Sequence record: PQ306573.1
Origin: Escherichia phage vB_EcoM_PTE-Eco05
Length of the DNA: 64,000 bases
Direction: 5' to 3' (one strand)
The notes under the pieces were generated by a model, which saw nothing but the letters and a program-made list of their open reading frames with translations, ran no database searches and was not told the origin of the DNA. Made by a program: the position numbers and the translations under genes. Every line of letters starts with the position of its first letter. The first letter of the stretch is position 1. Shown here piece after piece: positions 6,396 through 11,348 of this stretch.

Positions 6396-7721
6396 ATGCA
6401 ATTGAATTCTCGTAATCTAAAAAGTATTATTGATAACGAAGCCTTAGCATATGCGATGTACACCGTTGAAAACCGTGCAATCCCAAACATGATTGATGGA
6501 TTTAAGCCGGTTCAACGTTTTGTGGTTCATCGTGCGTTAGATTTGGCTCGTGGTAATAAAGAAAAATTTCATAAACTTGCGTCAATTGCAGGAGGTGTTG
6601 CAGATTTAGGTTATCACCATGGTGAATCTTCTGCACAAGATGCAGGTGCATTGATGGCTAACACATGGAACAACAACTATCCACTGTTAGATGGCCAAGG
6701 CAACTTTGGTTCTAGAACAGTCCAAAAAGCTGCAGCATCTCGTTATATTTTTGCTCGTGTAAGTAAAAATTTCTATAACGTATATAAAGACACTGAATAT
6801 GCTCCAGCTCATGAAGATAAAGAACATATTCCACCAAAATTCTATCTTCCTATTATTCCGACAGTTCTTTTGAATGGTGTCTCTGGTATTGCAACCGGTT
6901 ACGCAACAAATATTCTGCCTCATAGTTTTAAATCAGTCAAAAAGGCTGTATTACAAGCTCTTCAAGGTAAAAATGTCACTAAGCCAAAAGTTGAATTCCC
7001 GGAATTCCGTGGTGAAGTACATGAAGTTGATGGGCGTTATGAGATTCACGGAACATATAAGTTCACGTCTCGCACTCAAATGCAGATAACTGAAATCCCA
7101 TATAAATTCGACCGTGAAACGTATGTGAGTAAGGTTCTTGACCCGTTGGAAGACAAAGGTCTAATCTCATGGGAAGATGATTGTGGTGAACACGGCTTTG
7201 GGTTTAAGGTGAAGTTCCGTAAAGAGTACTCGCTTCCTGATGATGAAGAGCTACGTCATGAAAAAATCATGAAAGATTTTAGTCTCATCGAACGTCGTTC
7301 ACAAAACATCACAGTGATTAATGAAAAGGGTAAATTAGCGGTCTACGATAACGTAGTGGACTTAATCAAAGATTTTGTTGAAGTCCGTAAGACTTACGTT
7401 CAGAAACGTATTGACAACAAAATCCTTGAATCTGAAAAAGCATTTAAACTGGCTTTTGCTAAGGCGCACTTCATCAAAAAAGTTATCAACGGTGAAATTG
7501 TGATTCAAGGCAAGACTCGTAAAGCTTTGACTGAAGAGCTAGCACAAATCGAAATGTATAAAGAACATGTCGATAAACTGGTAGGTCTTAACATCTTCCA
7601 TATCACTTCCGATGAAGCACGTAAATTAGCAGAAGAAGCTAAAGCTAAGAAAGAAGAAAATGAGTATTGGAAGTCTACTGATGTTGTGACAGAGTACACT
7701 AAAGACTTGGAGGCACTTTGA
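6396..7721 (+). CDS. 52: DNA topoisomerase II medium subunit (GyrA-like)
   Basis: 441 aa; FKPVQRFVVHRAL and YHHGESS motifs; T4 gp52 length. Confidence 0.9.
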   Translation: MQLNSRNLKSIIDNEALAYAMYTVENRAIPNMIDGFKPVQRFVVHRALDLARGNKEKFHKLASIAGGVADLGYHHGESSAQDAGALMANTWNNNYPLLDGQGNFGSRTVQKAAASRYIFARVSKNFYNVYKDTEYAPAHEDKEHIPPKFYLPIIPTVLLNGVSGIATGYATNILPHSFKSVKKAVLQALQGKNVTKPKVEFPEFRGEVHEVDGRYEIHGTYKFTSRTQMQITEIPYKFDRETYVSKVLDPLEDKGLISWEDDCGEHGFGFKVKFRKEYSLPDDEELRHEKIMKDFSLIERRSQNITVINEKGKLAVYDNVVDLIKDFVEVRKTYVQKRIDNKILESEKAFKLAFAKAHFIKKVINGEIVIQGKTRKALTEELAQIEMYKEHVDKLVGLNIFHITSDEARKLAEEAKAKKEENEYWKSTDVVTEYTKDLEAL

Positions 7722-7797
7722 GTGCCCTAGCCTTAGGATTTCTCGGTGCAATAGCTGCACTAGTGATTTGGCTGTATTGGTTGGACAAACATGATTA

Positions 7798-7817
7798 GGG
7801 AGCTTCGGCTCCCTTTT
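7798..7817 (+). terminator. Rho-independent terminator, UUCG hairpin
   Basis: GGGAGC-TTCG-GCTCCC + TTTTG. Confidence 0.65.
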
Positions 7818-7841
7818 GTGCATTTTTTTCCTCACAAAACA

Positions 7842-7870
7842 GTTTACATGTGCTTCAAACATGATATTAT
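7842..7870 (+). promoter_or_regulatory. Early/middle promoter upstream of motA
   Basis: GTTTAC-N17-TATTAT; TGCTTCA (MotA-box-like) in the spacer. Confidence 0.5.
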
Positions 7871-7909
7871 AGACCTATCAAAACAAAACAACCAAATTGG
7901 AGAAATAAA

Positions 7910-8542
7910 ATGTCTAAAGTTACTTACATCATCAAAGCTTCTGAAAACGCTCTGAATGAAAAAACTGCTGCAATAATGGTTTATATCATTAAGAACAACT
8001 TCACCACTGCTGCCAATGTCCGTGAAGCTCTGGAAGCGGAATACAACGCATCGGTTGTTAACTCTAACATTGGTGTATTGATTAAGAAAGGTTTAGTCGA
8101 AAAATCCGGTGATGGACTTGTAGCAACAGGCGAAGCAATGGATATTATCCAAAAAGCTGCAGACCTCTTTGCCCAAGAAAATGCTCCAGAACTTCTTCAG
8201 AAACGTAACACTAGAAAAGCACGTGGAGTTACTCCTGAAATGCATGAATTAGCAAACTTTGTTTTTGAAAATATTAAAGATAAAGTTGAAGTTAAAGAAA
8301 TTGGTGAAAACCGTAGTAACTTGGAAGTTCGATTTGCAAAACGAGTTCTAGGTATTCGTCAGATCGAAATTCGTCGAGATGGTTCTCTTAGAATCTTTGC
8401 ATACAACATGTCAGAAACTGAATCAAAGCTGTTTACTTCTCTTGAAAATGATGTTAAGATTAAGATCGGTGGTAAATATACTTACATTGACTTCCCTAAT
8501 GTGTCCAAAGAAATCATTACCCTTGTAACTAATGTACTGTGA
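7910..8542 (+). CDS. motA: Middle-transcription activator MotA
   Basis: 210 aa; N-terminus MSKVTYIIKAS and internal NSNIGVLIKKGLVEKSGDGL match T4 MotA. Confidence 0.9.
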   Translation: MSKVTYIIKASENALNEKTAAIMVYIIKNNFTTAANVREALEAEYNASVVNSNIGVLIKKGLVEKSGDGLVATGEAMDIIQKAADLFAQENAPELLQKRNTRKARGVTPEMHELANFVFENIKDKVEVKEIGENRSNLEVRFAKRVLGIRQIEIRRDGSLRIFAYNMSETESKLFTSLENDVKIKIGGKYTYIDFPNVSKEIITLVTNVL

Positions 8543-8552
8543 GGAATACATA

Positions 8553-8882
8553 ATGAATAAGCTGAATATTATTAACGAACTTCGTAAATGTGCAGAACCT
8601 ACTCAGGAAGGATGGGATATTTGGTACCACGGGGCTTATTTAGGGACAATTGTAAAGATTAAAGCAGGCCAATATACGGTTATTCGTGAAAATAATGACG
8701 CACCATTTGGCCTTCGTAAAAACTACATGGCAGCGATCAGTTCATTTGTTGATGCAGCTTACGAAATCTATAAAGAAGATTATAAAGAATATCAGCAGTC
8801 ACAACCGGTTATTCGTTCGATTGGTGTAAATAAACAAGCACAAAAATCTATTTGGCAACGTATTAAAGGATGGTTTAAATGA
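8553..8882 (+). CDS. Hypothetical early protein
   Basis: ORF-track frame 8532..8882; ATG 8553 preferred (GAGG RBS, clears motA stop). Confidence 0.45.
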
Positions 8883-9340
8883 AAACTTTTAAAGAACGTT
8901 TAGCTCTGTTAGATAAAGCTTTGTCGCGTGAGACTCCGGAAAGTCTGGCTGCTAAATTAGCTTCTTACGGCGGCGAATATACAGAACAAAATGTTTTAGA
9001 TGAAGTTCCTGAAATCTGTTGGCAGACTCTGTATTGGGATGAAAACCAAAAGTATCAACGTCGAATTGTCTGTGCAGCCAACCGTTTTAAATTAAAAGAT
9101 GGACGAACTCTTATTATTCCAGGTGCTCGTCATTATTCTAAAGATATGGCAGAAGTTTTAGATGTAGTTAAACCTCAATTAGTTACTCAACAAGTTTGTG
9201 GTGACGACCAAGGCTTTATCGACCAATATAGTAATTATTGGACACGTGAAGAAGCAATGATTATTGCAACTTACGCTGGACAAGTACGTATTGAACGTGG
9301 TGGTAATGAAAAAGAACTTTACTCTGAGGACCTTTACTAA
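8879..9340 (+). CDS. Hypothetical early protein
   Basis: 153-aa ORF, start overlaps upstream stop (ATGA). Confidence 0.5.
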
Positions 9341-9621
9341 TGAATCTTAAACAACTCCAGATTGATGCTATTGAAGCCCACATTAATCATATCAAACGCC
9401 TGAATGCTATGATGGAAGAAAATTATGGTATGTATGCTAATCAGCCTGGTTGGGATGCTTTAGACCATCCTTATTTGGTTAATTTATGTAAAGGTGATAC
9501 GTTAGCAATTATTCGTGATGGGTTAAAACCTTTCTTGCGCGACATGTATATTAAAATGAACGAAGAAATTATTAGCTCGTTGCAATATCAATTAAGGAAA
9601 TTAGATGATGAGAATAATTGA
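9340..9621 (+). CDS. Hypothetical early protein
   Basis: 93-aa ORF, coupled to upstream ORF. Confidence 0.5.
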   Translation: MNLKQLQIDAIEAHINHIKRLNAMMEENYGMYANQPGWDALDHPYLVNLCKGDTLAIIRDGLKPFLRDMYIKMNEEIISSLQYQLRKLDDENN

Positions 9622-9823
9622 TTCTAAAGCAGATTATTTTAATTCTGTTAATGATAAGAATAAAGCTTTAATTCGCCACTTTATTACTGAGATGGGATAT
9701 ACCGACTCTAAAGATTTGAAAGAGCACATTATCGAATGTTCTGTGGCTAAAAAGTTTTCTTTCACAGACAAATGTTTAAACGAGGTTATAAATCATTATG
9801 AACAATCTTGTAGCAAAACATGA
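9605..9823 (+). CDS. Hypothetical early protein
   Basis: 72-aa ORF. Confidence 0.45.
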   Translation: MMRIIDSKADYFNSVNDKNKALIRHFITEMGYTDSKDLKEHIIECSVAKKFSFTDKCLNEVINHYEQSCSKT

Positions 9824-9905
9824 TTTCAATAAGGCTTCTGTTCATAAGGACAAGAAGAAATCGGAACTTCAATCTAAACGCAAACAAAAACATAAGGGTA
9901 AAGAC

Positions 9906-10194
9906 TATGCTTACTAAAATCAAAGAAAATCCTGCCACTGAACTTGTTATTCGATGTGAAGAACTTGCAGAGCTTTATCAGGTTAACCGAGAAGTGTATC
10001 GTAGTGTTGTTGTAGATATGGCAGACGAAGTATGTTCTCGTATTCCTTTTAGTGTCGATTTCAATCACATGAAGCCTGGTGAAATCACTATCGTCTTTGG
10101 TTCTGACTATACTGAAGAACGGGCTCTTAATGTCCTAGAATATGAAATGTCATTCTTTGACATACAGGACTACATTGATAGTTATAAGGAATGA
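9906..10194 (+). CDS. Small acidic protein; candidate Arn-like anti-restriction protein by position and composition
   Basis: 96 aa from ATG 9906 (AAGGG RBS); alternative in-frame start 9820; acidic; arn lies near asiA in T4. Confidence 0.35.
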
Positions 10195-10195
10195 T

Positions 10196-10357
10196 ATGAG
10201 CCATAATCTTCAGAACGTAGTAGAGGCAGAACGTGAGCGTGAGGCTTTAGTCTATAATGAACTATTAGCCACGTTCTTGGCCTTACACTCGTATGAACAG
10301 GAAGACTACACTGATTACGTTAAAAGTGTAGAAAAAGCTGTTTACAATCAACACTGA
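10196..10357 (+). CDS. Hypothetical small acidic protein
   Basis: 53 aa from ATG 10196, directly after previous stop. Confidence 0.35.
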   Translation: MSHNLQNVVEAEREREALVYNELLATFLALHSYEQEDYTDYVKSVEKAVYNQH

Positions 10358-10403
10358 TAATGGTACTATACTCATATCAACTAAATGGAATGAATAAAAC
10401 GTT

Positions 10404-10676
10404 ATGAATAAAGATATTGAAATTGTACGTGAAATTATTACGGTTGCTTCTATTTTGATTAAATTCTCGAGGGAAGATATTGTTGAAGACCGAGCAAATT
10501 TCATCGGATTCTTGAATGAGATTGGAATTAAAAAAGATGGTCGGCAGCTAAATCAGAATTCGTTCAGAAAACTAATTACAAATTTAACCGCCGAAGAAAA
10601 GAAAACACTGATTAGTGAATTCAATGAAGGTTTTGAAAATATTTATCGCCATTTGACGATGTATTCTAACAACTAA
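10404..10676 (+). CDS. asiA: Anti-sigma70 factor AsiA
   Basis: 90 aa; near-identical to remembered T4 AsiA (MNKNIDxVREIITVASILIKFSREDIVE...). Confidence 0.92.
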   Translation: MNKDIEIVREIITVASILIKFSREDIVEDRANFIGFLNEIGIKKDGRQLNQNSFRKLITNLTAEEKKTLISEFNEGFENIYRHLTMYSNN

Positions 10677-11348
10677 TTATTTAGCCCGCCCTAATATCCT
10701 TGCTGCTTGGTTGCATATTGCAGCCAAGCGTTCTTCATTTAACACATCCGACCCCTTATACCAATACATAGAAACAGTTCCAGCATATATGTTATCCAAA
10801 TTGAAGTAAGGACAACTATACATATACGCCAGTTCCGGAGTTTTTGATTTGGTAGGTAAGAAAGCAAAATCTGTTTTAGAAGTAAAGTGAAGTCCACTTA
10901 AATGGACCGAATATTCTGCTGTCGTTTTATCAACAGGAAATCCTCCCATAGATTTTTCAGTTACTGTGCTAGGTAACTTACCTTCATACGCAATAAGGTC
11001 GACGAAATAATTTAGATTTTTAGGTCTGAAAGAATACACCGAACTAAAATCCGCCCTTGATGTGACGTGGACTATTTGTAGTTGTTCTAAAGCCGCAGAT
11101 TCAAATCGTGTATTTCTTTCTTTTTGAATTACTTCTGTGTAAGTATCATATTTCGACCTCACGTAATAATCCATAAAAATATTCCCTTTGTACCATATTA
11201 GTGCCATTAGGAACAAAAGAACTACAACAGCAACTCTTGAAATAAGAATATTTCCGGAGGCGTTATCTTTGAAAATGCGGTCTAGCAACCCAAATAAAAT
11301 ATCACTAGGCGAAAATGATACTTTTGGTGCTGCCATATTACCTCCCAT
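10677..11348 (-). CDS. t: Holin (lysis-inhibition-sensing holin T)
   Basis: 223 aa; N-terminal TM segment, large periplasmic domain, C-terminus ICNQAARILGRAK as in T4 T. Confidence 0.9.
   Translation of the reverse strand: MGGNMAAPKVSFSPSDILFGLLDRIFKDNASGNILISRVAVVVLLFLMALIWYKGNIFMDYYVRSKYDTYTEVIQKERNTRFESAALEQLQIVHVTSRADFSSVYSFRPKNLNYFVDLIAYEGKLPSTVTEKSMGGFPVDKTTAEYSVHLSGLHFTSKTDFAFLPTKSKTPELAYMYSCPYFNLDNIYAGTVSMYWYKGSDVLNEERLAAICNQAARILGRAK

Follow-up and report, generated by a model that had tools for sequence, protein, structure and literature searches.

A predicted divergent Arn protein in the Mosigvirus counterpart of the T4 arn operon

What is encoded by the small genes that lie between motA, the gene of the middle-transcription activator, and asiA, the gene of the anti-sigma-70 factor, in a T-even phage related to RB69, and is there among them a counterpart of the anti-restriction protein Arn of T4? 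We address this question for positions 8553-10357 of a 64,000-nucleotide (nt) stretch of Escherichia phage vB_EcoM_PTE-Eco05 (PQ306573.1), which is referred to here, at its full length, as the window. An earlier note, made from the letters of the sequence alone, had described in this interval a cluster of tightly coupled small open reading frames (ORFs) and had put forward one acidic product as an Arn-like, DNA-mimic-type anti-restriction candidate. Synteny, predicted fold and bridged sequence homology all support that candidate. We consider it probable that the observations are jointly best explained by a Mosigvirus arn operon carrying a highly divergent Arn, most likely a small acidic DNA mimic directed against McrBC, the activity against McrBC being argued by analogy.

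The 3 kb surrounding the interval share 96-97.5% nucleotide identity with Mosigvirus coliphages such as CAU_ECP01, JK36 and mar005P1, and on this basis we assign the window to a Mosigvirus, that is, an RB69-like T-even phage. Judged by synteny, the interval is the Mosigvirus counterpart of the arn operon of T4 and T2: the order on the plus strand is motA, arn.4, arn.3, arn.2, arn.1, a DUF7230 gene, arn, asiA.1 and asiA, with gene 52 upstream of motA and the convergent genes for holin t, gp38 and gp37 beyond asiA, and T4 has the identical layout (asiA, asiA.1, arn, arn.1, arn.2, arn.3, arn.4, motA, motA.1, 52). The expectation that arn, the arn.x genes and motA.1 would fill this interval thus holds for arn and arn.x, which are syntenic, and fails for motA.1, which in T4 sits between gene 52 and motA.

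Identity of the acidic protein

The acidic product had been described as a 96-amino-acid (aa) protein encoded at 9906..10194. The ORF is real, but it starts at 9907 and encodes 95 aa, and the frame beginning at 9906 has 15 stop codons. We also considered, and rejected, a 124-aa reading from an ATGA start at 9820, given that the distant homologues and the PHROG family all begin at the MITK or MLTK equivalent to 9907, and that the upstream stretch is the DUF7230 gene in another frame. The product is indeed strongly acidic, with 20 aspartate and glutamate residues against 9 lysine and arginine residues, an isoelectric point (pI) of 4.37 and a net charge of -11; the corresponding values for T4 Arn, a protein of 92 aa, are 4.55 and -9.

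Structure prediction, which the earlier note had suggested as a check, points clearly to Arn. An AlphaFold2 model of the product, with a predicted local distance difference test (pLDDT) score of 86, has the crystal structure of T4 Arn (3WX4) as its best Foldseek match in the PDB, with a probability of 1.00 and template modelling (TM) scores of 0.68/0.66 over 90 columns, and the second-best match reaches a TM score of only 0.33. On its predicted structure, the protein is a member of the 3WX4 fold.

Homology to T4 Arn was also found through profiles and intermediate proteins. An exhaustive profile search covering 1.84 billion representative proteins yielded two genuine further relatives only, P0022 and P0018; the hits P0019-P0021 and P0023 were long repetitive matches, which we discarded as compositional or repeat artefacts. 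P0022, a metagenomic protein of 91 aa with a net charge of -12, aligns over the full length with the Mosigvirus protein (30% identity, E = 3e-16) and likewise with T4 Arn (33% identity, E = 7e-11), and it scores 16 bits on the Pfam family DM_Arn, whose cut-off is 26 and on which T4 Arn itself scores 187 bits. P0022 had no match in the viral and metagenome contig collections, and its contig was retrieved through an exact look-up; the order there is the end of a DUF7230 gene, P0022, a protein beginning with MSHNL, AsiA and a convergent holin. P0018 stands at the position X of a complete array consisting of motA, arn.4, arn.3, arn.2, DUF7230, X, MSHNL and asiA. A profile combining the family of the acidic protein with the bridging proteins matches T4 Arn end to end (positions 7-91, 24 bits), and T4 Arn matches phrog_8202, the PHROG of the acidic protein, over its full length (E = 0.0054). 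A word-indexed search returned relatives at 81% identity or more only, and a search of PDB sequences with the acidic protein gave no match to Arn, only spurious levivirus coat proteins.

In Dhakavirus IME341, Jiaodavirus KEN25_2 and Kagamiyamavirus EcS1, the arn slot is filled by acidic proteins of 91-93 aa whose net charges range from -10 to -16, and together these proteins form a connected similarity network. Across genera, the Arn-like alleles have L20, G58, D88 and Y89 invariant and end in a C-terminal (I/L)xDY motif; slot, length, charge and this motif are common to six lineages. The T4 and Mosigvirus proteins therefore resemble each other in fold, in length (about 92-95 aa), in net charge (-9 to -11), in slot and in C-terminal motif, and in both phages the start of the gene overlaps the DUF7230 gene by 11 nt, whereas they differ in sequence, with about 18-21% identity, and in PHROG assignment (3151 for T4, 8202 here). 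On the combined strength of sequence comparison and modelled fold, we identify the product of 9907-10194 as a divergent orthologue of arn.

The C-terminus of the gene (10189-10198) varies among close relatives. In this phage and in Bas46 the protein ends in YKE (GAA TGA), and in RB69, mar005P1 and Bas38 the sequence reads GAA CAA and the protein extends with QYES, giving an 11-nt overlap with asiA.1. Compared with the RB69 type, the protein encoded here is four residues shorter and the overlap with asiA.1 is lost.

Proposed action and the points that weigh against it

T4 Arn inhibits McrBC restriction of non-glucosylated hydroxymethylcytosine (hmC) DNA and has been modelled as a McrB-binding mimic of DNA (review PMC12707154). 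By analogy, the divergent Arn most likely acts as a small acidic DNA mimic, probably as a dimer, that would fill the DNA-binding site of host McrBC and possibly of other DNA-binding host proteins. With McrBC blocked, newly made hmC DNA would be protected until it is fully arabinosylated, Mosigvirus DNA being hydroxymethyl-arabinosylated (PMC8594841) in contrast to the glucosyl-hmC of T4. In this respect the protein would be comparable to Ocr of T7 and ArdA of Tn916, which are likewise small, strongly acidic and early-expressed and have been proposed to sit in the DNA site of restriction enzymes, although their folds and sequences are unrelated to Arn and they act on type I enzymes and BREX, not on type IV enzymes.

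Several observations, at the level of the protein and of the operon, weigh against this explanation. The Foldseek E-value for 3WX4 is modest (4.6e-3), BLASTP against T4 Arn gives a marginal 21% identity over 38 aa, the Pfam family DM_Arn (PF22134) has no match at E<=0.1, and hence none above its gathering threshold, for 9820-10191, a stretch spanning the whole protein, and hhalign of the two shallow family alignments returns a probability of 2.8%. About 80% of the residues differ from T4 Arn and, because of this, target and surface specificity are not transferable from T4. Arn can also block the PUA-Cal-HAD system, in which three substitutions between the T4 and T2 proteins decide binding (PMC12871103). 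As for the operon, the cluster is probably co-transcribed with motA and asiA, a proposal that is built on consensus matches to promoters and terminators, and two features reported for the T2 operon have no equivalent here.

These two features concern post-transcriptional control. In T2, arn.4-arn.3-arn.2-arn.1-arn form one transcript, with which the host small RNA ArcZ pairs at arn.2 positions +285 to +294, and this pairing is reported to keep RNase E from cutting the transcript in a 70-nt spacer ahead of arn.1 (bioRxiv 10.64898/2026.06.19.733364). The operon of T2 and T4 resembles that of the present phage in having the same genes in the same order, tightly coupled and placed between motA and asiA. 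In T4, positions +285 to +294 of arn.2 read CCAGGGAAAT, the complement of AUUUCCCUGG in ArcZ, whose sequence we confirmed against E. coli genomes and Rfam RF00081, whereas in the present phage the site at the 3' end of arn.2 is replaced by GATGAGAATA. No match to the ArcZ site occurs in 7600-10800 at up to one mismatch, and in a duplex-energy scan the best sites of the window reach -24.7 kcal/mol, no better than shuffled sequence (mean -26.6). The stretch that forms the 70-nt RNase E spacer in T2 and T4 encodes, in the present phage, the N-terminal part of a 72-aa Arn.1, and since the gene of this longer Arn.1 overlaps arn.2 by 17 nt, there is no arn.2-arn.1 spacer. The T4 "spacer" (locus L003 2399-2306, against 9590-9700 of the window) is itself open in the frame of arn.1 and has a TTG where the window has its ATG, and a hand count on the alignment finds 8 of the 17 changed codons to be synonymous. 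T4 Arn.1 is therefore probably a protein of 72 aa rather than the annotated 43, with the ArcZ site overlapping its start. The ArcZ and RNase E control reported for T2 is thus not conserved in sequence in Mosigvirus, and the "intergenic region" is probably coding.

Among the alternatives, the one that survives best retains the fold and changes the task, in that the protein would be a descendant of Arn retargeted from McrBC to another DNA-binding defence or host protein, such as a type IV enzyme recognising arabinosyl-hmC, a GmrSD/BrxU-like enzyme, PUA-Cal-HAD or H-NS. We regard this as possible, if clearly less probable than an action against McrBC. No other gene of the operon diverges as fast as arn, whose product has about 20% identity to T4 where Arn.3 has 82%; across genera, the slot contains five or more alleles that are distant from one another; and the DNA-modification context differs, Mosigvirus carrying arabinosyl-hmC (PMC8594841). 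In addition, T4 Arn also binds H-NS (PMC12707154) as well as PUA-Cal, and single substitutions switch this binding (PMC12871103). However, an arms race with McrBC variants predicts fast divergence equally well, and no alternative target was found by any of our analyses.

Arn.3 and the CmdA antitoxin

A second alternative, which appears doubtful to us, assigns the main counter-defence role of the cluster to Arn.3, whose pair of N-terminal helices would imitate the end of the antitoxin CmdA that binds the toxin. Arn.3 shares 82% identity with its T4 counterpart (126/153) and 125/153 residues with that of RB69, and its conserved core (T4_Y16D, PF26092) has no recognisable fold. Residues 1-30 (8879-8968) match the PADLOC family PD-T4-9_B, or CmdA, with E = 1.4e-8, and the same family is matched by 11 of the 47 members of the Arn.3 family. 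PD-T4-9 is the toxin-antitoxin-chaperone system CmdTAC, which restricts T-even phages and whose component B is the antitoxin CmdA (PMC9519451, PMC11618068). CmdA consists of two N-terminal helices, its only folded part, and a disordered chaperone-addiction tail with a ClpXP degron (PMC11618068).

A genome scan provided a Lelliottia locus in which CmdT (E = 2e-90), CmdA (4e-34) and CmdC (2e-56) were all verified, and in its CmdA 20 of the 30 N-terminal residues (67%) are identical to those of Arn.3 (E = 1e-10; locus L018 2501-2590). Over this stretch, nucleotide identity is 59% only and 11 codon differences are synonymous, and therefore conservation of the peptide is favoured over a recent transfer of DNA. 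The model of Arn.3 places helices at residues 4-8 and 20-29, in an N-terminus of low confidence (pLDDT about 65), and the remainder is a folded, conserved domain with pLDDT above 90 that ends in SEDLY. Beyond the shared N-terminal 30 residues the two proteins differ, as Arn.3 has a conserved globular domain of 110 aa and no disordered addiction tail or Ala-Ala degron, and its gene, a phage gene, adjoins neither CmdT nor CmdC; the neighbours arn.4 and arn.2 gave no match to PD-T4-9_A or PD-T4-9_C. The likeness to CmdA is greatest in this phage, less pronounced in RB69 and Bas46, and marginal in T4.

From these comparisons Arn.3 could be read, though we think it unlikely, as a degron-less phage surrogate of CmdA that keeps CmdT neutralised. 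Under such a scheme, capsid synthesis would lead to degradation of host CmdA, Arn.3 would hold the CmdT mRNA ADP-ribosyltransferase neutralised, and the variable N-terminus of Arn.3 would track CmdTAC variants. In its favour are the PADLOC match and the identity to CmdA of a verified locus, kept despite the low nucleotide identity and the synonymous differences, together with the facts that the shared residues correspond to the only folded part of CmdA, that the addiction tail and the AA degron are absent, that CmdTAC specifically restricts T-even phages (PMC11618068), and that orphan antitoxins are known as counter-defences in T4-like phages (PMC11825919). Against it, the match spans 30 residues only, within an N-terminus modelled at low confidence, and the pattern of restriction does not follow the likeness. 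CmdTAC of ECOR22 restricts all BASEL Tevenvirinae but Bas35 and Bas38 (PMC11618068); Bas46 is apparently restricted despite an 18/30 match to CmdA, Bas38 escapes with a match of only 15/30, and T4, whose N-terminus barely matches (12/30), is restricted. In the BASEL phages, there is hence no simple correlation between similarity to CmdA and escape from CmdTAC. If true, the surrogate role would be the first function assigned to any arn.x gene and would make Arn.3 the first natural factor against CmdTAC, and the likeness itself bears on the role of the arn.x genes, a question of long standing.

Finally, that the acidic ORF is unrelated to Arn, a chance small acidic protein with a coincidental fold match, is very improbable: the missing DM_Arn match, the low hhalign probability and the possibility that small alpha/beta folds converge speak for it, but 3WX4 is the single outstanding fold match, the intermediates align full-length with both proteins, and six lineages have slot, length, charge and C-terminal motif in common.

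Gene content, exchange and annotation of the operon

We return to the preferred explanation, a Mosigvirus arn operon with a divergent Arn in which the small early or middle genes are translationally coupled, and to the genes that surround arn in it (Table 1). All small ORFs have PHROG family matches (E from 1e-31 to 1e-72), and the ORFs of the cluster are kept in hundreds of T-even phage records; from this conservation we conclude that the tightly packed ORFs are real genes. The earlier description of six coupled ORFs was right as to the tight junctions and short by one gene, the 39-aa ORF at 9798-9917 having been overlooked, which on our sequence analysis brings the number in 8553-10357 to seven. 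motA and arn.4 are separated by a gap of 10 nt that carries a GAGG Shine-Dalgarno sequence; arn.4 and arn.3 overlap at ATGA, arn.3 and arn.2 at TAATG, and arn.2 and arn.1 over 17 nt; the DUF7230 gene shares 26 nt with the end of arn.1 and 11 nt with the start of arn; and a gap of 1 nt lies between arn and asiA.1.

Table 1. Genes and candidate transcription signals in and around the arn operon of the window.
Feature	Coordinates	Strand	Basis
Gene 52	6396-7721	+	
Likely terminator after gene 52: GC-rich hairpin (AGGGAGC-TTCG-GCTCCCT) and T-rich tract	7797..7814	+	Sequence
Candidate promoter upstream of motA, sigma-70/T4-early type: TTTACA-16-TATTAT, TG extension	7843..7870	+	10/12 consensus positions
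motA, middle-transcription activator (upstream flank)	7910..8542	+	Pfam MotA_activ 2.4e-39, MotCF 2e-8; PHROG 4e-90
arn.4 orthologue, 109 aa, basic, pI 9.3	8553..8882	+	phrog_1594 6e-53
arn.3 orthologue, 153 aa	8879..9340	+	Conserved core T4_Y16D, PF26092
arn.2 orthologue, 93 aa	9340..9621	+	phrog_1844 9e-42
arn.1 orthologue, long form, 72 aa	9605..9823	+	phrog_4452 3e-40
DUF7230 gene, 39 aa, lysine-rich	9798..9917	+	Pfam DUF7230 5.4e-13
arn, divergent, 95 aa, putative DNA-mimic inhibitor of type IV restriction	9907..10194	+	Fold, bridging homologue, profiles, synteny
asiA.1 positional orthologue, 53 aa, acidic, pI 4.7	10196..10357	+	phrog_5245 2e-31
Promoter-like site within the end of asiA.1: TTTACA-17-TACTAT, TG extension	10341..10369	+	9/12 positions
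asiA, anti-sigma-70 factor (downstream flank)	10404..10676	+	Pfam AsiA 3e-33
Terminator-like hairpin and T-tract beyond asiA, inside the convergent holin gene t	10704..10740	+	Scan

Confident homology to proteins of unrelated known function, against which the earlier note had set its proposal, was found for no ORF of the cluster in Pfam, PHROG, PADLOC or structure searches. Arn.4, Arn.2, Arn.1 and AsiA.1 gave no informative matches in Pfam, PHROG, PADLOC and further searches, and we disregarded the weak PADLOC matches of Arn.4 to REase_II (16 bits) and of Arn.2 to Hp1 (15 bits).

The overlooked gene encodes a strongly basic peptide (pI 10.1, net charge +8) that matches DUF7230 (PF23876) with 49.3 bits, above the gathering cut-off of 27, and it is present in 1211 phage records. 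On the non-overlapping codons of eight loci, its own frame has a crude ratio of nonsynonymous to synonymous polymorphism (pN/pS) of 0.23, and the two alternative frames have 1.57 and 1.42; the gene is under purifying selection in its own frame. The gene is likewise conserved in T4 (L003 2200-2081, minus strand), where it lacks annotation in the reference genome, and it is kept where arn.1 is missing (L009, L014). We rejected the idea that the 39-aa peptide is ArfA-like and involved in ribosome rescue: BLASTP against E. coli ArfA gave E = 0.81, and no match to ArfA in Pfam or to any PDB entry was found. In Pseudotevenvirus/Slopekvirus and Gualtarvirus, the DUF7230 gene lies elsewhere in the genome (L012 1501-1939, L016 901-1342, L013 1501-1828) and is again overlapped at its end by a small and strongly acidic ORF (109 aa, net charge -11; 71 aa, net charge -10), in which we detected no similarity to Arn. 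The pairing of a basic peptide with an acidic protein may therefore be recurrent, with EcS1 and Cronus as exceptions.

The description of the interval as a hypervariable island needs to be qualified. Its gene content is syntenic with T4, which does not fit that term, and it is the rate of divergence that varies, with 82% identity to T4 for Arn.3, about 20% for Arn and about 33%, in the N-terminus only, for AsiA.1; moreover, the cassette has been exchanged between genera. In the Tequatrovirus Bas38 (AugustSocin; L019 250-3100 against 7860-10700), identity to T4 is 92-100% between motA and the middle of arn.3 and drops to 30-60% in the remainder through asiA, a part in which Bas38 and the window agree at 90-100%. 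The crossover is placed within the arn.3 core, where Bas38, T4 and the window have about 95% nucleotide identity. The arn.3 core of the window is T4-like. As judged from these sequence identities, the arn cassette has been exchanged between genera at conserved anchors, namely the core of arn.3, the DUF7230 gene and the beginning of asiA.1, which encodes MSHNL, and to this extent the idea of a variable island stands.

AsiA.1 is 33% identical to T4 AsiA.1 over the 40 N-terminal residues, both proteins starting with MSHNL. The AsiA.1-like proteins of L003, L008, L009, L011, L014 and L015 have an N-terminal MSHNL(E/Q)xV in common, and the rest is fully divergent, with lengths from 42 to 112 aa. 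The conserved 5' end of asiA.1 may act as a recombination anchor beside the variable arn cassette.

For the remaining Arn.x proteins, identity to T4 is 40% for Arn.2, 79% for Arn.1 (against the annotated 43-aa T4 protein) and 76% for Arn.4 over the C-terminal 67 aa; on the Arn.4 homologue in L009, the Pfam family Phage_T4_Y16F is recorded. In T4, the 42 N-terminal codons of arn.4 form a conserved open stretch as well (L003 3460-3335 against 8553-8680 of the window), and T4 has ATA at the position of the ATG start of this phage; T4 Arn.4 is therefore annotated from an internal methionine, at 68 aa as compared with 109 aa here. Between gene 52 and motA (7722-7909), the present phage has neither a motA.1 homologue nor the insertion of about 320 bp, with a gene for a 71-aa hypothetical protein, that is found there in CAU_ECP01 (L001 501-930), APCEc01 and several Mosigvirus.

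As regards transcription, the best promoter match of the region is the one ahead of motA (7843-7870), from which a rightward transcript would cover motA, the seven small genes and asiA and reach the hairpin at 10704-10740, its likely end. The hairpin after gene 52 likely marks the upstream boundary of the unit; our scan reported it on the minus strand only, the T-run of the plus strand lying just under the scan threshold. The site at the end of asiA.1 is possibly a separate promoter of asiA. Promoter-like sites in the region are no more numerous than in shuffled sequence. In a search for MotA-box middle promoters, two TGCTTNA boxes were found (7851 and 9456), neither of them with a correctly spaced -10 element, and no Rfam RNA family matched 7600-10800 at E<=1.

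The identity of Arn is not wholly new, as two database records already label it, and it is the standard family models that miss it. The product bas46_0084 of the BASEL phage Bas46 (ChristianSchoenbein; GenBank MZ501056) is 100% identical to the protein described here and is labelled "anti-restriction nuclease protein Arn", and that of Bas38, 96% identical, is likewise labelled Arn. The RB69 orthologue, RB69ORF259c, is about 97% identical and is called a hypothetical protein in RefSeq (NC_004928), which puts "anti-restriction nuclease" on arn.1 instead; in the literature that we searched, we found no mention of this RB69 gene. The name has spread to arn.1, or to arn.1 through arn.4, in RB69 (NC_004928), JK45 (NC_054940) and CAU_ECP01, as well as in PHROG 4452, and none of the arn.1 to arn.4 proteins carrying it is Arn.

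The true arn gene of RB69-like phages, which most GenBank records call hypothetical, is now pinpointed, and the alleles of Mosigvirus, Dhakavirus and Jiaodavirus escape the Pfam and PHROG models. Correct annotation of Arn bears on predicting how therapeutic T-even phages evade restriction. Arn emerges as a family that evolves fast, with five or more very distant alleles at one fixed genomic position, which together make up a natural panel for the target specificity of DNA mimics.

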